In this document: in pieces, positions 3,025 through 19,628 of the stretch
Layout: every line of letters starts with the position of its first letter
Position numbering within the stretch: the stretch's first letter is position 1
UHGV virus genome: UHGV-0278008
Length of the DNA: 19,628 nt
From: a virus
Strand: one strand, 5' to 3'
Notes under the pieces: generated by a model
Told to the model about the DNA's origin: nothing
Seen by the model: only the letters and a program-made list of their open reading frames with translations
Databases searched by the model: none
Program-made: the position numbers and the translations under genes

Positions 3025-3030
3025 GCCCAT

Positions 3031-3055
3031 AAAAAAAGCCCCTCCGGAGAGGGGC
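3031..3055 (-). terminator. Intrinsic terminator, minus strand (end of TerB-like transcription unit)
   Basis: gcccctc/gaggggc stem with 4-nt loop; A7 on plus strand = U-run on minus. Confidence 0.5.
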
Positions 3056-3305
3056 TGACGCTGCGTATCTGTATCATCATGCGCATGGTGCCGGGTGCCT
3101 CCCGGTGAGTTCAGTCCGGTGTCCCTGAACCCGCGTATCTCGATCCAGGTTGTCGTCAGAGATGACACCTTATACACCAGTCGCCCCTCCGCACAGGGGG
3201 ATTCACCATGCGAAATTTTTTTAACAAATGCTCAGTCTGACAGGCAACTGTCAACTGACTGAATTGTGAGACATTTAAAATTTTCGGGGCATGACTGATA
3301 CCCGG

Positions 3306-4068: not shown

Positions 4069-4145
4069 GGCGCGTTGTACTGGATTCGAACCAGTGACCG
4101 ATTGCTTAGAAGGCAATTGCTCTGTCCGGCTGAGCTAACAACGCA
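4069..4145 (-). tRNA. tRNA-Arg, anticodon UCU, CCA encoded
   Basis: Hand-folded cloverleaf: acceptor gcgttgt/acaacgc, D-arm gctc/gagc, anticodon loop cttCTaa, T-loop ttcgaat. Confidence 0.8.
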
Positions 4146-4158
4146 GTGTACCGATAAT

Positions 4159-4235
4159 GGACCGCCATCGAGGACTCGAACCCCGCGCAACCAGCTTCGA
4201 AGGCTGGCGCTCTGTCCCGATGAGCTAATGGCGGT
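4159..4235 (-). tRNA. tRNA-Arg, anticodon UCG, CCA encoded
   Basis: Acceptor ccgccat/atggcgg, anticodon loop ctTCGaa, T-arm cgggg-ttcgagt-cctcg. Confidence 0.75.
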
Positions 4236-4244
4236 ATGTGATAT

Positions 4245-4320
4245 GGTGGCCCTTGCTGGATTTGAACCAGCGACCTGGCGATTATGAGTCGCTCGCTCTC
4301 ACCACTGAGCTAAAGGGCCG
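4245..4320 (-). tRNA. tRNA with anticodon CAU (Ile2-type or Met), CCA encoded
   Basis: Acceptor ggccctt/aagggcc, D-arm gctc-agtggtga-gagc, anticodon loop ctCATaa, T-loop GGTTCAAATCC; same order as ileZ-argN-argO of Stx phages. Confidence 0.8.
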
Positions 4321-6923: not shown

Positions 6924-7973
6924 TTACCCGAGCACGCCAGTCGCAAAGGCGTGATCAAGAAAACGAAAAATTAACTCAATCTGAGAGCCGTACTTTTTCT
7001 CAAACTTCAGCGGGTCTGCATGAAGTTCGTTGTGGTGCTCCCGGCACAACGGTAGCGTGAAAATATCGTGGGCCTTTGTTCCCATTCCCCCCTGACCATG
7101 ACCAATCAGGTGATGCGGATCGTCAGCTGGCTTACCACAACACGCACACGGCTGTGTCTTTACCCAGCGCGTGTATTTCTCATTAACCCAACGGCGACGT
7201 TTAGGCCGCCTCATGAACGATTCAGGAGACTCCGGATCAACAGCGATACTGACAACCGTTTTTTTCTGTGGTGGATTTTGTTGCTGGTGGACGTGAAGTG
7301 GCAGCGCAATATTTTTTGTGCGCTGCTTCAGTATGCTGATGGCTGTCTGTTCTCCCGGTACGATGTCACTCTCACGGTATACGGAGCGGATTTTTTCCGC
7401 TGGTAATCCCAGCGAACGACGCGCTACTGCCTCAGGTAGTGCATCCACCACCTGATTGCAGGCCGCCCACCAGGATAATTCGGCCAGCGATAACTCCCTC
7501 TCCTGCGTACCGCTTATTGCGTGACGGATGACATCAATCATCCAGGCAACCAGATTCTGCTGAGCAAGTTGATCGAGTGATTCTGATGTCTGGTCGCGCA
7601 GCTGGTTGTCACAGTGCCAGCACAACACCATCGCGCCGGTACCGTAACGGTGAATGACTGTTTCGCTGTGATGATAATCGCCGTGTGGCCACTGGCAGGA
7701 TTTCACGTGACGTAATAACCAGTCAGACAGTGCACCTGCACCACCTGCTGCACGAATAACCCGCTCATCGCTGAAAAATGGCAGTAATGTTTTATCCTCT
7801 GCCAGCGGCTGGCGAACGGCAGGAACGACTCCGGACGGCAGACCGCGCATGTTTTTCGGTTCCGGCTCCACCAATATTCTGCCGTTATGGAATACTGACA
7901 TTGATTCACGGCCTGGCTTAACGATAACCAGACCGAGTTCCGGTACCAGAACAGGTCGAAGTAATACCCGCAC
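6924..7973 (-). CDS. DUF968-family prophage protein (YdfU-like) with C-terminal Cys/His zinc-binding HNH-like motif, 349 aa
   Basis: GTG start at 7973 with GGAGG SD; C-terminus CACCGKPADDPHHLIGHG...CREHHNELH; same size and position as YdfU of Qin. Confidence 0.7.
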   Translation of the reverse strand: MRVLLRPVLVPELGLVIVKPGRESMSVFHNGRILVEPEPKNMRGLPSGVVPAVRQPLAEDKTLLPFFSDERVIRAAGGAGALSDWLLRHVKSCQWPHGDYHHSETVIHRYGTGAMVLCWHCDNQLRDQTSESLDQLAQQNLVAWMIDVIRHAISGTQERELSLAELSWWAACNQVVDALPEAVARRSLGLPAEKIRSVYRESDIVPGEQTAISILKQRTKNIALPLHVHQQQNPPQKKTVVSIAVDPESPESFMRRPKRRRWVNEKYTRWVKTQPCACCGKPADDPHHLIGHGQGGMGTKAHDIFTLPLCREHHNELHADPLKFEKKYGSQIELIFRFLDHAFATGVLG

Positions 7974-7974
7974 G

Positions 7975-8247
7975 TTACCTCCAGATGCGCTGCTGGAATG
8001 TGCGGGACGGACGCGGTGGGCGTTCGGAATAAGGGAGCCTGGCGGAGATTATCCAGTGACGACGATCGAAGCTGAGGGCTTTCTCAAACTCATATCCGCG
8101 CCTGCGGTAACACTGGATCAGCCATTCGGCCTGTTCTTCAGTGCATAGGTCATGCTGGAACCAGTCGGTTTTAAATACGTGTGAACGCCGCCCCTGCTTA
8201 ATGGTCGGATCGACTTCAGAATTGTGGGATTTTATATGTTGCGCCAT
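7975..8247 (-). CDS. Hypothetical protein (Rem-like by position), 90 aa
   Basis: ATG with GGAGAA SD; located between DUF968 gene and hok, as rem is in Qin. Confidence 0.45.
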   Translation of the reverse strand: MAQHIKSHNSEVDPTIKQGRRSHVFKTDWFQHDLCTEEQAEWLIQCYRRRGYEFEKALSFDRRHWIISARLPYSERPPRPSRTFQQRIWR

Positions 8248-8415
8248 CGGGTTCTCCGGTGACGCAGCAGGTGCCAGTTGTTCAGGCTGACGCGCGAATT
8301 GTAAACCAGAATGCCAGGAAAAAACAAAGTCTGCCGAAACGGGGTAAGTGCGGGTGCGTTGAGGATGCCTGACACATCAGAGGTGGCGAGGGATTTCTCC
8401 CTCGCCTGGTCACTC

Positions 8416-8571
8416 TTACTTCTCAGATTCGTAGTCTACGAAGACAGCAACCTCCGTCTGGCCGGTTCGGATTCGTACCTCGCAGAGGTCTTTCCTCGTT
8501 ACCAGTGCCGTCACTATGACGGTTAAACAGATGACGATCAGGGCGATTAACATCGCCTTTTGCTGCTTCAT
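8416..8571 (-). CDS. hok: Hok/Gef-family type I toxin (51 aa)
   Basis: MKQQKAMLIALIVICLTVIVTALVTRKDLCEVRIRTGQTEVAVF... is near-identical in pattern to HokD/HokC. Confidence 0.85.
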   Translation of the reverse strand: MKQQKAMLIALIVICLTVIVTALVTRKDLCEVRIRTGQTEVAVFVDYESEK

Positions 8572-8628
8572 AGTCTGCTTCTCCTTGACCTTTCGGTCCG
8601 TAAGAGGCAATCTATATGTGACGAGCAT
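8416..8628 (-). CDS. Mok-like in-frame N-terminally extended reading frame over hok (70 aa)
   Basis: ATG at 8628..8626 with GTGAGG SD; MLVTYRLPLTDRKVKEKQTM- extension resembles recalled MokC N-terminus. Confidence 0.45.
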   Translation of the reverse strand: MLVTYRLPLTDRKVKEKQTMKQQKAMLIALIVICLTVIVTALVTRKDLCEVRIRTGQTEVAVFVDYESEK

Positions 8629-8671
8629 ATAGGGGCCTCACTTCGATTTATAGTCGGGTGGGGCTTTTATC
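8600..8671 (+). ncRNA. Candidate Sok-like antisense RNA; 5' end not determined
   Basis: Plus-strand hairpin gcctcac (8634-8640) / gtggggc (8660-8666) plus U-run 8667-8670, antisense to the mok SD/start; TTGACC at 8585-8590 is a possible -35. Confidence 0.35.
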
Positions 8672-8816
8672 TATCTGCCGTTGGTGTTCATGCCCGAGGC
8701 AGATAGCCTCAAGCACCCGCAGCAATTTTACAAAAACAAACTATTATTTTCTATGTCCTTTCACTTGTCTCATTTCTGACTATACTGATCGCTCACACAA
8801 CACAAAAGGTATAAAA

Positions 8817-14492: not shown

Positions 14493-14912
14493 ATGGTTCA
14501 TGAAGATAAAGCGCGTAAAGAGTTCGCCAGTAGGCTTGCGCTAGCCTGTGAAAACGCTGGTTATGAACAACATGGAAGGCAGGCAGAAATTGCCCGTCGA
14601 ATGAAATTAACACCAAAAGCGGTTAGCAAATGGTTTAATGGCGAAACAATTCCTCGCCGGGAGAAATTAAGGGAATTAGCAACACTAATAGGAACAACAC
14701 CAACCTATCTTTTGGGAGAGGATACAGAAGAAAGTGGACAGGTACGTTTCTATCAGGAGTTAAATCCAAGACAAAAAATCATCATTGACCTTCTGGACGA
14801 ACTCCCTGACAGTGAGACAGATGAACTTTTAAAAACTCTTGAAGAGAAAAAACAGAAGTACAATGCAATTTACGAAGAGTTAGCACGAAAGAAAAAACAA
14901 AAAGCCTCTTAA
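14493..14912 (+). CDS. DicA/RacR-like HTH (XRE) prophage repressor, 139 aa
   Basis: HTH RQAEIARRMKLTPKAVSKWFNGE; C-terminal LLDELPDSE...EEL region resembles DicA; weak SD. Confidence 0.75.
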   Translation: MVHEDKARKEFASRLALACENAGYEQHGRQAEIARRMKLTPKAVSKWFNGETIPRREKLRELATLIGTTPTYLLGEDTEESGQVRFYQELNPRQKIIIDLLDELPDSETDELLKTLEEKKQKYNAIYEELARKKKQKAS

Positions 14913-15204: not shown

Positions 15205-15357
15205 ATGGATACGCTCAATCTTGGCAACAACGAATCTCTGGTATGCGGTGTGTTCCCTAACCAGGACGGCACGTTTACCGCGATGACGTATACCAAAAGT
15301 AAAAAGTTTAAAACCGAAGCTGGCGCGCGTCGCTGGTTAGCCAGAAACACTAACTGA
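15205..15357 (+). CDS. Small protein, YdfA/YdaF-like (50 aa); not in ORF track
   Basis: ATG at 15205 with GAGG SD 5 nt upstream; MDTLNLGNNESLVCGVFPNQDGTFTAMTYTKSKKFKTEAGARRWLARNTN; TGA at 15355. Confidence 0.6.
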   Translation: MDTLNLGNNESLVCGVFPNQDGTFTAMTYTKSKKFKTEAGARRWLARNTN

Positions 15358-15608
15358 TTAGCACCAGTAAAAACAGGTTGCCACTGGTTAATTTACCCTG
15401 AAAAGTCAGGGTATAACACGAAAGCGCACGGCGAAGCTCTTTCCCTTAGAAGGCTTGTCGTTAGATTTCTTCGAGCGTGCGCTTCCGGTTGTGGCAATCC
15501 GCGAAATGGCGCGGCGGTAAGTATGGCTGGGGTTTCCTCCATTGCTCCAGAAAATGCACCGGGTTGTCAGGTTGACCATACGATTAAGTGACAGCCCCGC
15601 CACAATAC

Positions 15609-15666
15609 CCATGTGTAGTCTTTGGTGGCATCAGTTCTACTCCGTGACTGCTCTGCCACCCTTTTT
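15609..15666 (+). ncRNA. dicF: DicF-like sRNA (3' two-thirds conserved, including terminator)
   Basis: GGTGGCATCAGTTCTACTCCGTGACTGCTCTGCCACCC+TTTTT closely matches recalled DicF 3' region GGCGGUAUCAGUUUUACUCCGUGACUGCUCUGCCGCCCUUUUU; 5' boundary uncertain. Confidence 0.6.
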
Positions 15667-16149
15667 AAAGTGAATTTTGTGATGCGGTGAATGCGGCTAA
15701 GCGCACGCGGAACAGTTAAAACAAGCGGTCTTTTACTGGCGTAACAGACATCAACTAACAATCCGGCGTTAATTGTTAACTGGTTAACGTCACCTGGAGG
15801 CACCAGGCACTGCATCAACAAAGTTCACTTCGGTGATGAAGGGTAAGAGAAAATGTTGAATGTAGCTATTGAAAACCAGAATGGGTGGAATTATAGTGCA
15901 CCTGCACCTCATAAAGCGGGTGCCGGGCGTGGAAACCCGATGATGACTACTGCGCATAACCGCGCTCAGGCGGTTTTTTTATGCGTAATGCACAGCCACA
16001 TTCAGATTATGGTGGGGCGTGCAGGGCAGCCGAAAGGCTGGCCGGTTTCGGTAGTCACCGGTATTTCCACCCCTGTACGTCTCACCACCCTTATGGTCGT
16101 GGAAAGCCTTGGTGGTGAGTTATTTAAACTGACTATCGAGGCTGCCATC

Positions 16150-16707
16150 ATGGCTACTATCCCTGCCCTTTCTCACCCTGACGTAACCATCGAAAATGGA
16201 CGCGCTGTCACTACGTCTATTGCGATCGCTGAGTTCTTTGGTAAACGCCACGAACGAGTGTTGGATAAAATTCGCAATCTGGACTGTTCAGCAAAATTCA
16301 CTGAGCACAATTTTGTGTCGAGCGAATATACCGACTCAACCAGTCGCAAACTCCCAATGTACCAAATCACCAAAAACGGCTTCGTTTTCCTGGTGATGGG
16401 CTTCACCGGCAAAAAAGCCGCTGCATTTAAAGAAGCCTACATCGCTGAGTTCGATCGCATGGAGAAAGAACTGCGCCAGAATAACGCCCCGTCTCCCGAC
16501 AAAATGATTCACGGGGACGGACGTACCATGGTTATCCGTCTCGACGAACACGGCAATATCAAATTCACTGAAACCGTTCCGGACGGCGCAATGGTCTGCA
16601 CCCTGGATACCTTCCAGTTTTACCTGGAGAAACAAGGCTGGACTCTTGTAAACCGGAGCGCAATTAAAAATATGACTGTGGAGCAATTACTAAAAATTCA
16701 TTGTTGA
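16150..16707 (+). CDS. Rha / ORF6N-domain phage regulatory protein (185 aa from ATG 16150; ORF open from 15853)
   Basis: GAGG SD before ATG 16150; ORF6N/Rha-like motif VTTSIAIAEFFGKRHERVLDKIRNL; upstream in-frame region contains a terminator-like hairpin. Confidence 0.6.
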   Translation: MATIPALSHPDVTIENGRAVTTSIAIAEFFGKRHERVLDKIRNLDCSAKFTEHNFVSSEYTDSTSRKLPMYQITKNGFVFLVMGFTGKKAAAFKEAYIAEFDRMEKELRQNNAPSPDKMIHGDGRTMVIRLDEHGNIKFTETVPDGAMVCTLDTFQFYLEKQGWTLVNRSAIKNMTVEQLLKIHC

Positions 16708-16717
16708 GGACGCGATA

Positions 16718-16906
16718 ATGGAAACGTTATTACCAAACGTTAATACGTCTGAAGGGTGTTTTGATATTGGTGTTCTGCTCAGTAACCGGGAGTTTACTGA
16801 AGATGCCATTAAGATGAGAAAATATGAGCCTTATCTTCTCAATGATAATTCCATACTCTCCAGAATTGCCCTTCTTGAACTTGGTATTTTCGGAGAACAT
16901 CAATGA
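16718..16906 (+). CDS. dicB: DicB-like cell-division inhibitor (62 aa)
   Basis: METLLPNVNTSEGCFDIGVLLSNREFTEDAIKMRK... matches recalled DicB N-terminus (MKTLLPNVNTSEGCFEIGV...); GAGGA SD. Confidence 0.8.
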   Translation: METLLPNVNTSEGCFDIGVLLSNREFTEDAIKMRKYEPYLLNDNSILSRIALLELGIFGEHQ

Positions 16907-17091
16907 CTTCAGCATTTGCACTGGTGATGACGGTTTTTCTTATAACGGGTGAATCACAGAATGTGATTACCGGAATTTATGCCAGTAAAGAATCCTGCCT
17001 CCAGGCAAGAGACGAGCAAAAAATTTCTGGTGAATGCCTCCCGTTAAAAAAAGTATCGCTGTACCTGAATAACGAAACACCGGCTGGATAA
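16903..17091 (+). CDS. YdfD-like small protein with N-terminal hydrophobic segment (62 aa)
   Basis: ATGA overlap with dicB-like stop; MTSAFALVMTVFLITGE...; position as ydfD in Qin. Confidence 0.55.
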   Translation: MTSAFALVMTVFLITGESQNVITGIYASKESCLQARDEQKISGECLPLKKVSLYLNNETPAG

Positions 17092-17183
17092 CCCAGCAGC
17101 CGTATTAACGCCATACCCGTTGATTAAGCATGCCAGCAATGGCAGGGGTTCGTACAACCTTAAAATAGTTATGAGGTTTATCC

Positions 17184-19628
17184 ATGAGCACTGATAAAGA
17201 AGAATTTTCGCTATATTGCGAAGCAAAAAATGACAAGGTCAGAAAACGCCTTGGGATTAAAGGGGGTTTTTACTGGACTACAGCAAAAAAATTATCTGTT
17301 GCCATCTCACGGTGCGTTGTTGCAATGGACGATGCTGGATTTGACGAAGAGGATTTCAAAAAAACTGTTCGCGTGAATTTGCCCATTGTTAATGACCTGC
17401 CGCCTGAAGGTGTGTTTGATACCGAATTCTGCAACCGCTATGAAAAAGGCGGGGAAGATGGCATCACAATGATATTTATAGCGCCTTCCCCCTTAGTTCA
17501 GGACAAACCAGCCAGCACTGACAATACCAACGTCAATGGCGAAGACATGGCTGAGATTGAGGATAATATGCTCCTGCCGATTTCCGGTCAGGAACTGCCC
17601 ATTCGCTGGCTTGCGCAACATGGCAGCGAAAAACCGGTAACGCACGTTTCACGGGAAGAACTTCAGGCATTACATATCGCACGAGCTGAAGAACTGCCTG
17701 CTGTTACTGCCCTGGCTATTTCCCACAACACAAAGCTGCTCGACCCGCTGGAGATTCGCGACCTTCACAAACTGGTACGCGACACAGACAAAGTTTTCCC
17801 TAATCCCGTTAATTCCAGTCTGGGGTTAATGACTGCTTTTTTCGAAGCATACCTGGACGCTGACTATACCGATCGAGGTCTGCTGACAAAAGAGTGGATG
17901 AAAGGAAATCGTGTTTTACGCATCAGCCGCACGCCATCCGGCGCTAATGCTGGCGGAGGAATTCTTACCGATCGCGGTGAAGGTTTTGTCCACGATGATG
18001 CGTCAGTGGAACGTGACGTTGCCGCTGGCGTTCTGGCCCGTTCAATGGACATCGATATTTACAATCCACATCCGGCACACGCCAAACGCATTGAAGAAAT
18101 CGTTTCAGAGAATAAGCCGCCCTTTTCTGTTTTTCGTGACAAATTCATCGCCATGCCTGGTCACCTGGATTATTCCCGCGCGATAGTGGTTGCGTCCGTG
18201 AAAGAAGCACCAATTGGTATCGAGGCTACTCCCCACCGTGTTACCGAATATCTGAACAAAGTACTGACCGAAACCGACCATGCCAACCCTGATCCAGAAA
18301 TCGTGGATATTGCCTGCGGTCGCTCCTCTGCTCCAATGCCGCAGCGTGTAACAAAAGAAGGAAAACAGGATGATGAAGAAAAACCGCAGCCATCTGGCGC
18401 AATGGCAGATGAACAGGCAACGACTGAAGCAGTGGAACCGGATACAACTGAACATAATCAGGACACGCAGTCGATGGATGCTCAGCCACAGATAAATTCT
18501 GTTGATGCGAAATATCAGAAACTGCGTGCAGAACTCTATGAAGCCAGGAAAAACATTCCACCCAAAAATCCTGTCGATGCAGATAAATTACTGGCTGCTT
18601 CTCACGGAGAATTTGTTGAAGGGATTAGCGACCCGAATGATCCAAAATGGGTGAAGGGGATTGAAACCCGCGATTCTGTGAACCATAACCAGCAAGAAAC
18701 GGAACAGAAAGGCCATAAAGCGGAACAACACAGTCCAAATGCGCAACAAAACGAGCCAGAAACGAAACAGCCTGAACCAGTAGCGCAACAGGAACCGGAA
18801 AAAGTCTGCACAGCCTGCGGTCAGACCGGCGGCGGCAACTGTCCTGACTGTGGCGCGGTGATGGGCGACGCAACATACCAGGAGACATTCAACGAAGAAA
18901 GCCAGGATGAAGCCCGGGAAAAAGATCCGGAGGAAATGGAAAGTGCCGGACTCCCGAACAAGGAGTGCACCGAAGGCGATCAACATGCCAATGGCAATAA
19001 TGAAACAGGCGAGACAGCAAATCCCTTAATTAAGGTGAACGGTCATCGTGAAATCACATCCACCAGCAGGTTGTGGCACCATCTGATGATTGACCTTGAA
19101 ACAATGGGCAAAAATCCTGATGCGCCAATAGCCTCAATAGGCGCTGTATTTTTCGATCCACAAACCGGAGAGCAGGGGCCTGAATTCAGCAAAATAATTG
19201 ATATGGGTACATGTGGCGGCACTGTAGACATAAGCACCATCGAATGGTGGCTTCAACGCTCTGGCGAAGCCCGTGCCGCCATTTTAGCTGATCGAATACC
19301 GCTTGATGATGCGCTTTTACAATTACGGGAATTTATAGACGAAAACTCCGGTGAGTTTTTTGTTCAGGTCTGGGGAAATGGAGCCAACTTCGACAACGTG
19401 ATTTTACGCCGTTCATATGAACGGCAGGAGATCCCCTGCCCGTGGCGTTACACCAATGATCGCGATGTAAGAACGATGGTCGCTCTGGGGTTGGTGATGG
19501 ATTTCGATGCCCGCAACGTCACCACATTTGAGGGTGAACGCCATAATGCCCTGCACGATGCGCGTTACCAGGCAAAATACGTTTCAGCTATCTGGCAAAA
19601 ACTGTTCCCAAATCAGGCTGATTTTTAA
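17184..19628 (+). CDS. RecE-like protein (exodeoxyribonuclease VIII-like N-terminal region) with C-terminal DEDDh/DnaQ-type 3'-5' exonuclease domain, 814 aa
   Basis: GAGG SD; C-terminal motifs MIDLET (DxE), [15 protein letters not shown] typical of DnaQ-like exonucleases; CxxC...CxxC (CTACGQ...CPDCG); stop is last codon of window. Confidence 0.75.

Follow-up and report, generated by a model that had tools for sequence, protein, structure and literature searches.

A probable IsrK-C4-type RNA immunity cassette with a Rha-family gene between dicF and dicB of a Qin-like prophage

What occupies the long interval between DicF and dicB in the virus genome UHGV-0278008, and is the open frame that fills part of it a protein, a regulatory leader or both? 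In the 19,628-nucleotide (nt) stretch of this genome that was analysed (hereafter the window, to which all coordinates refer unless another genome is named), the small RNA (sRNA) DicF is followed by an insert with a Rha-type gene and then by dicB; by alignment, dicF and dicB of the Qin prophage of Escherichia coli K-12 lie 174 nt apart. A sequence-only reading of the same DNA had noted about 1 kb with a Rha-type gene at this place, and alignment with K-12 bears this out as an 875-bp insertion relative to Qin. It had also taken the open frame upstream of the gene for a regulatory leader rather than coding sequence, and the whole for a possibly undescribed regulatory or exclusion module. We consider it probable that the insert is a P4-type/IsrK-C4-type RNA immunity cassette with a Rha-family, AnrP-like antirepressor gene, lodged in a Qin-like lambdoid prophage within its early-left (dicBF) operon; antisense RNA would gate the gene, and ribosomes passing through the upstream frame would suppress that gating.

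What do the 99 codons upstream of the Rha gene contain? They are predicted to hold two RNA genes, isrK and C4, as regulatory RNA, with the following elements.

15818-16692, + strand: whole putatively RNA-gated Rha cassette, the 875-bp insertion relative to Qin, both junctions taken from K-12 alignments
15869-15897, + strand: predicted sigma-70-type promoter of IsrK (TTGAAA 15869-74, 17-nt spacer, TATAGT 15892-97)
15904-15980, + strand: IsrK/seqA-type sRNA, 77 nt (Rfam RF01394, model positions 1-77)
15929-15935, + strand: box a1, GTGGAAA, in IsrK, complementary to the C4 junction TTTCCAC (16064-16070)
15944-15952, + strand: box b1, TGACTACTG, in IsrK, complementary to the C4 loop CGGTAGTCA
16005-16092, + strand: C4/CI-type antisense RNA (Rfam RF01695, full length, model positions 1-87)
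16046-16057, + strand: b' loop of C4, TTTCGGTAGTCA
16063-16070, + strand: a' junction of C4, ATTTCCAC
16099-16144, + strand: downstream C4 target a2/b2, the equivalent of P4 seqC
16099-16108, + strand: box a2, GTGGAAAGCC, with GTGGAAA at 16099-16105 complementary to TTTCCAC
about 16130-16144, + strand: box b2, overlapping the rha Shine-Dalgarno (SD) sequence GAGG (16138-16141)

Both Rfam matches are full length (isrK, 63.5 bits against a gathering score of 50; C4, 79.3 bits against 45). The promoter agrees with the consensus at 10 of 12 positions, lies 7 nt ahead of the point where the Rfam isrK match begins and keeps its -35 and -10 boxes in the aligned homologues; it would be the equivalent of P4 PLE and Gifsy-1 PisrK. 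The only other promoter-like site in 15300-17200, a 9/12 match at 17139-17166, is far from the RNA genes. A terminator scan places the intrinsic terminator of IsrK at a stem (15958-15975) followed by seven T residues, the same hairpin plus T7 that the sequence-only reading had pointed out at 15958-15980. The predicted fold of C4 is that of the family consensus, in which a long stem closes off two inner hairpins and a single-stranded junction (minimum free energy -49.3 kcal/mol, z = -6.6), and in 41 related sequences 8 of its 27 predicted pairs carry compensatory changes, with practically none broken. IsrK was identified by its Rfam covariance-model match and by compensatory stems seen by eye in the alignment, with no formal pair count; when RNAalifold was applied to 45 IsrK sequences in an 85-nt alignment, in which MAFFT placed the terminator stems in differing registers, it recovered the 4-bp a1 hairpin alone. 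The c4-a1b1 model (RF03163) stayed below threshold at the window (24.6 bits against a gathering score of 46.7). Homology to other phages begins at the isrK start rather than at the ATG at 15853, where the long open reading frame (ORF) discussed below begins.

How specific is the pairing between these boxes? Besides its match in IsrK, the C4 loop is complementary to TGACTATCGAGGC (16130-16142), which takes in the rha SD. An exact-pattern scan of IMG/VR yielded about 108 unique modules for comparison. The C4 core of the window forms a predicted duplex of -39.1 kcal/mol with its own IsrK, the best of the 108 modules, and one of -33.7 kcal/mol with its own downstream site (RNAduplex). Across modules, the mean for C4 core and own IsrK is -38.3 kcal/mol versus -28.5 for foreign IsrK, and for the own downstream site -32.9 versus -24.5 for foreign sites, the median rank of the cis target among 107 being 0 (IsrK) and 2 (downstream). 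At least 32 a'/b' combinations occur among 63 E. coli-type modules. In a four-way alignment of the window, two Shiga toxin (Stx) phages and Gifsy-1, the three boxes covary together (GTGGAAA/TTTCCAC/GTGGAAA; TCGCAG/CTGCGA/CGCAG; TTGGCGT/ACGCCAA/TTGGCGT) and the stems change in compensatory fashion. Judged by this box covariation, the module exists in many specificity types.

If the stretch is occupied by RNA genes, why does an ORF run through it? The coding features are these.

15853-16707, + strand: long 'eta-like' ORF, 284 amino acids (aa) (RefSeq WP_000935583.1, Rha family protein; ORF list, PGAP)
16009-16011, + strand: ATG equivalent by alignment to the first AUG of Gifsy-1 orf45 (A107), in frame with rha over 47 codons with no stop
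16150-16707, + strand: rha cargo gene, 185 aa, with the SD GAGG (16138-16141) 8 nt before its ATG
16210-16467, + strand: Rha winged-helix domain, aa 21-106 of the 185-aa protein (PF09669, E 1.3e-30; TIGR02681, E 1.9e-31)
16447-16665, + strand: C-terminal domain related to Gifsy-1 AnrP, aa 100-172 (phrog_2379)

From a start that precedes the internal promoter, the long ORF traverses both RNA genes and enters rha. Ahead of the ATG at 16150 the rha frame has exactly 99 open codons, as had been claimed for this SD-supported start. By comparison with its relatives, this ATG is a genuine, conserved start: the SD and ATG, GAGGCTGCCATCATGGCTAC, are identical at the P4 kil start, their position is kept in Gifsy-1 anrP, and they are kept even where the downstream gene differs (ORF6N in Gifsy-1). 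In the E. coli-type class of modules (class A), which was defined by an ORF-independent isrK signature and comprises 66 unique modules, 65 have no stop in the rha frame over 306 nt, and the other two frames hold a mean of 3.4 and 4.7 stops.

The 284-aa ORF could simply encode a two-domain Ash-Rha regulatory protein, the RNA matches being incidental. Indeed, PGAP calls the long ORF, Phage_ASH (PF10554) matches its aa 14-109 (E 4e-20; E 1.6e-17 with the 99 codons; 64-73 bits versus a cut-off of 26), PHROG profiles 995 and 821 cover its N-terminal part, the frame is open in nearly every class A homologue as just described, and the annotation of Stx phages contains homologous long ORFs of 340-383 aa. 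Against such a protein stand the full-length Rfam matches within the ORF, a promoter and a terminator placed exactly at the RNA ends, an intrinsic terminator inside the supposed domain, and a three-site complementarity that is cis-specific. The pattern of change is likewise not that of a protein domain. Across one set of 21 sequences, the 99 codons show codon-position entropies of 0.63/0.67/0.71 versus 0.49/0.39/0.98 for the Rha domain, where codon periodicity is strong; identity drops from 0.73 (nucleotide) to 0.55 (amino acid) upstream, compared with 0.72 to 0.68 in Rha; and compensatory base-pair changes recast the amino acids radically, for example from QPKGW to PTSVG. Protein-level conservation of the 99 codons, named earlier as an argument against a leader, is present in appearance, through the Phage_ASH match, yet the conservation lies at the nucleotide or RNA level and lacks codon periodicity.

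The Phage_ASH match itself calls for an explanation. The P4 match of PF10554 is to an ORF once called 'cI protein', now obsolete, which overlaps the CI RNA, whereas the true P4 epsilon (Ash, helper derepression) matches PF25738; the P4 regions at issue are 8168-8584 and 7888-8175. Because the P4 match is the 'cI protein' ORF and not epsilon, and because amino-acid-level constraint is lacking in E. coli-type modules, PF10554 appears to model the translation of the seqA-CI/IsrK-C4 RNA module, which happens to stay open. A published survey of P4 satellites took PF10554 as an epsilon marker. With the domain read in this way, we regard a plain Ash-Rha protein as very improbable.

Is the frame then open merely by chance? 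The 99 codons might be a purely non-coding leader, with the 185-aa protein as the one product and the open frame as a by-product of RNA conservation. The missing amino-acid-level constraint would agree with this, as would the weak SD at 15853, transcripts from the internal promoter, which do not include the ATG at 15853, and the Salmonella/Gifsy-type and P1-type modules, which work without the long ORF, their frames closing 21-33 nt upstream (the remaining 49 modules, of Gifsy and P1 type, have a mean of 3.4 stops in the equivalent frame). However, polymorphic stop columns number 1 in the rha frame versus 53 in the other two frames, and highly variable segments, such as 15981-16004, never gain a stop in the rha frame. 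In 59 of the 66 modules the AUG of C4 and that of the cargo are 138 or 141 nt apart, and length differences are multiples of 3. Several upstream contexts have an in-frame ATG, in one case preceded at 7 nt by GGGAGG, that lies 294-300 nt before the ATG of the cargo; in other contexts the ORF extends to, or is fused with, an upstream ORF overlapping the cII stop. P4 eta, moreover, is reported to be translated from an upstream promoter, its translation preventing termination (PMC10111431), a logic that fits the open frame conserved in modules of the window type. A purely non-coding leader therefore seems unlikely to us, although less so than the Ash-Rha protein.

Since codon periodicity is absent and the frame is nevertheless kept stop-free, the 99 codons look like RNA-constrained sequence in which translation as such is apparently selected. 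The stretch is, as far as comparative analysis can tell, a region of regulatory RNA that is at the same time maintained as an ORF, and the open frame likely serves ribosome transit rather than an amino-acid sequence. The idea of a regulatory leader rather than coding sequence was thus right about the regulatory RNA but finds no support in its second half, the frame being open across almost all of class A. Two other candidates in this region were rejected: the 45-aa ORF at 15981-16118, considered as a homologue of Gifsy-1 orf45, lies in a different frame (the true equivalent AUG is at 16009), and the in-frame ATG at 16093, a candidate for a start under C4 control, is not kept in the homologues of the four-way alignment.

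What does the gated gene encode? Profile searches give Rha (PF09669, 106.2 bits versus a cut-off of 29.9; NCBIfam TIGR02681, 108.3 bits versus 45.95), and in the 284-aa version Phage_pRha covers residues 120-205 (E 2.5e-30; TIGR02681, E 6.8e-31). The motif had been described as ORF6N/Rha-type; the Rha half of that description holds, and ORF6N is the domain of the Gifsy-1 counterpart. The C-terminal 75 residues match phrog_2379 (E 1e-8), the family that AnrP itself matches at 3e-98. A PDB sequence search with the 185-aa protein gave no match.

Domains of the KilA-N/ORF6N/Rha type occur in some defence-associated proteins, and DicB protects against some phages. An anti-phage exclusion or abortive-infection module would draw on this domain kinship, on the neighbouring DicB and, by analogy with P1 and P4, on superinfection immunity through C4. 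In PADLOC, neither the 284-aa nor the 185-aa version matched any family, and the exclusion module suggested by the sequence-only reading loses its footing there. The homologous cassettes all belong to temperate phages and satellites, where they sit in the immunity or early regions, and AnrP, the sole characterised close relative, induces its own prophage and does not abort infection (PMC4825925). We find such a module extremely unlikely.

How might the parts of the probable immunity cassette work together? The internal, constitutive-looking promoter would produce the 77-nt IsrK, ending at the hairpin and T7, and read-through would produce C4. In a lysogen, by inference from P1, P4 and Gifsy-1, C4 would pair with a2/b2, mask the rha SD and block translation at 16150 and at the AUG at 16009. 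The untranslated RNA would be prone to termination, so that neither Rha nor the toxic dicB would be expressed even with the internal promoter present, and transcription would probably stop short of dicB. An excess of short IsrK could titrate or remodel C4 pairing and so turn on translation of Rha, which might then act as an antirepressor-like regulator, as AnrP does. Upon derepression of the upstream operon promoter, a step modelled on the open frame and on P4 eta, ribosomes would start at the ATG at 15853 and translate through the IsrK terminator and the C4 region, suppressing both termination and RNA gating. Transcription could then continue into rha, dicB, exo, xis and int.

Several points weigh against this picture. 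The picture relies on inference for the activity of the promoter, for the processing of the RNAs, for translation starting at 15853 or 16009 and for any Rho-dependent terminator, and the SD before the ATG at 15853 is weak (AAGAG or GAAGGG). The stop-codon statistic does not count independent events, because the 66 modules share descent and a single exact pattern served to collect them; RNA constraint may also hide a weak amino-acid constraint. An antirepressor-like activity is proposed for the Rha cargo from its likeness to AnrP, and the likeness of the C-terminus is weak (21% identity, BLASTP E 0.01, PHROG E 1e-8). Unlike in Gifsy-1, the orf45 equivalent of the window is fused in frame to rha, with 47 codons, the start sequence CATCATGGCT and no AUGA stop-start overlap; the N-terminal domain of the cargo is Rha (Phage_pRha) and that of AnrP is ORF6N; and isrJ, present after the cargo in Gifsy-1, had no Rfam match in the window. 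Because of the in-frame fusion, the Rha N-domain and the missing isrJ, the details of the Gifsy-1 switch may not transfer.

A wider conjecture can be put forward more tentatively, at somewhat less than even odds in our judgement. In a large class of lambdoid/Qin-like cassettes, including those of Stx phages, the 'Ash' ORF of about 100 codons would be kept purely so that ribosomes of the early operon override the sRNA terminator and the antisense gate. In the window, it would then depend on the cassette whether transcripts of the early-left operon extend to dicB, exo, xis and int, and C4 RNAs with matching a'/b' boxes from cryptic prophages could cross-silence the antirepressors of co-resident or incoming Stx phages. 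If true, this reading of the 'Ash' ORF would generalise the P4 eta mechanism beyond satellites.

Where did the cassette land? The elements on either side of it are as follows.

15610-15661, + strand: DicF sRNA, terminator to about 15667 (Rfam RF00039, full length; aligns with K-12 Qin dicF)
15662-15817, + strand: ordinary dicF-dicB spacer, common to K-12 Qin, with a GTTAA-repeat hairpin and a CCTGG hairpin
16718-16906, + strand: dicB, the next gene downstream (Pfam DicB, E 4.8e-37; Qin alignment)

The DicF match reaches 61.1 bits against a gathering score of 48. In E. coli K-12 the Qin dicBF operon reads ydfA-ydfB-ydfC-dicF-dicB-ydfD. DicF, the GTTAA-hairpin spacer, the dicB initiation region, dicB and the DUF1482 gene are collinear between the window and Qin and about 90-100% identical, the dicB translation-initiation region being the same in the alignment with K-12. 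Unlike Qin, the window has the 875-bp cassette 35 nt upstream of the would-be dicB start region, and it has no ORFs of ydfB or ydfC size upstream of dicF. The GTTAAC repeats at 15768-15790, cited earlier as part of the regulatory leader, are present and are predicted to fold as a hairpin (about 15765-15791). Because 15765-15817 is identical between the window and K-12 Qin, which lacks the Rha gene, they belong to the normal dicF-dicB spacer, outside the inserted module.

In the window, the interval between the ydfA-like gene (DUF1391, 15205-15357) and DicF is about 250 nt long (15357-15610), whereas in K-12 Qin it holds ydfB and ydfC. A DicA-like repressor lies farther upstream, at 14493-14912. 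The segment just 5' of the ATG at 15853 (15818-15852) weakly resembles the dicB initiation region at the right junction (16690-16717), which suggests that the cassette may have been inserted by recombination near a start region, the similarity being too short to test. The spacer at 15673-15822, including the GTTAA hairpin, shows sub-threshold similarity to STnc100 (31.2 bits versus a gathering score of 47, E 1.5e-4), and a full STnc100 copy (161.5 bits) lies at 3025-3240 on the - strand. The same prophage carries a hok/sok-type locus at 8569-8718 (- strand; Rfam sok, 104.6 bits), for which the matching RefSeq record shows a Hok/Gef gene, and three clustered tRNA genes at 4071-4319 (- strand).

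How widespread is the arrangement? At least 80% of the 1311-bp dicF-rha-dicB stretch is found in 378 of 5426 complete E. coli genomes. The best genome match, 99.9% identical, sits in a prophage adjoining tRNA-Ser/mtfA, where the PGAP annotation gives the long ORF as a Rha family protein and has no ncRNA. Homologous cassettes also lie between cII and O in the PR operon of Stx1/Stx2 phages (L003 2144-3295, L004 2141-3292, L006 2273-3295); there the cassette is annotated as one 'antirepressor/Rha' ORF of 340-383 aa whose start overlaps the cII stop, the inner RNAs being unannotated. Some viral contigs (L041 9710-11212; L025, L026, L088, L107, L114) have two or three tandem IsrK-C4 cassettes at about 656-nt spacing, each with a differing a'/b' specificity and a 120-aa Rha-like cargo, and each long ORF starts directly after the stop of the preceding cargo.

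For annotation, the consequence is that RefSeq labels the whole 284-aa ORF as Rha and leaves three sRNAs unannotated. In about 7% of complete E. coli genomes, the toxic division inhibitor dicB is immediately preceded by the cassette, with its putative constitutive promoter, RNA switch and antirepressor-like gene, and a grasp of the gate could bear on prophage induction and on cross-talk between prophages. The picture of how such modules work is unchanged; a known mechanism is extended to a new context, and the value lies mainly with specialists in annotation and prophage regulation.

How, finally, does the locus compare with known systems? Its homology places it in a kind of cassette already published, as P4 seqA/CI/seqC with eta/kil, Gifsy-1 isrK-orf45-anrP and P1 c4-icd-ant, so that the module is not an undescribed one; the dicBF setting appears to be new. 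P4 has the same element order and matches the same Rfam models (isrK-like at 8615-8692, C4 at 8420-8507 of P4). Its long ORF (8168-8812, 214 aa, or 197-199 aa when counted from the MMM at residues 16-18) spans both RNAs and, as in the window, starts upstream of the internal promoter, with a nested start downstream of CI. The SD and ATG of P4 kil read GGAGGCTGCCATCATGGCTAC, which the window matches at 16150 save for the first base (an extra G upstream in P4), and the first residues are alike, MATTLTPSHPE in P4 Kil and MATIPALSHPD in the window. The P4 ORF sizes (Eta of 197-199 aa; a 65-aa terminal part, MATTLTPSHPE, as Kil) presumably agree with those of Forti et al. 1999. Unlike P4, the window has a 185-aa Rha/AnrP-like cargo in place of the 65-aa Kil and a lambdoid Qin-like prophage as its host element in place of a satellite, and its seqA-CI spacer is shorter. 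CI and seqA of P4 have been placed within the Bro-network (Rha/Ash) gene eta, where the Rfam C4 and isrK models detect them; a constitutive internal promoter yields the immunity RNA, and Kil is translated upon read-through (PMC10111431, 2023).

In Gifsy-1, read-through of the IsrK terminator yields an inactive isrK-orf45-anrP mRNA; short IsrK opens the orf45 ribosome-binding site in trans, and translation of orf45 is coupled to that of anrP (PMC4825925; Hershko-Shalev et al. 2016). AnrP triggers antQ expression and prophage induction, and the analogy with SeqA/CI was noted in the same study (PMC4825925). The window shares with Gifsy-1 an IsrK sRNA with its own promoter and Rho-independent terminator (leaky in Gifsy-1), a C4-like stable RNA downstream (STnc1160 in Gifsy-1), an orf45 AUG at the C4 5' end, a conserved cargo SD and ATG, and a cargo C-terminal domain in the AnrP PHROG family. 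It departs from it in lying between dicF and dicB in the early-left operon, whereas the Gifsy-1 locus is downstream of antQ, and in its long upstream ORF, whereas the Gifsy-1 frame closes 27 nt upstream.

The box logic is also that of the immI operon of P1 and P7 (c4, icd, ant1/ant2), where, as Citron and Schuster reportedly described in 1990, C4 carries a' and b' boxes with targets a1/b1 upstream and a2/b2 downstream, b2 lying over the ribosome-binding site. As there, the C4 RNA of the window has boxes on both sides, with specificity types set by box sequence. Unlike P1, the window has no icd-like ORF, and its cargo is outside the P1 Ant family. The in-frame starts of the window would nonetheless allow a long and a short isoform of the cargo, which recalls P1 Ant1 and Ant2.

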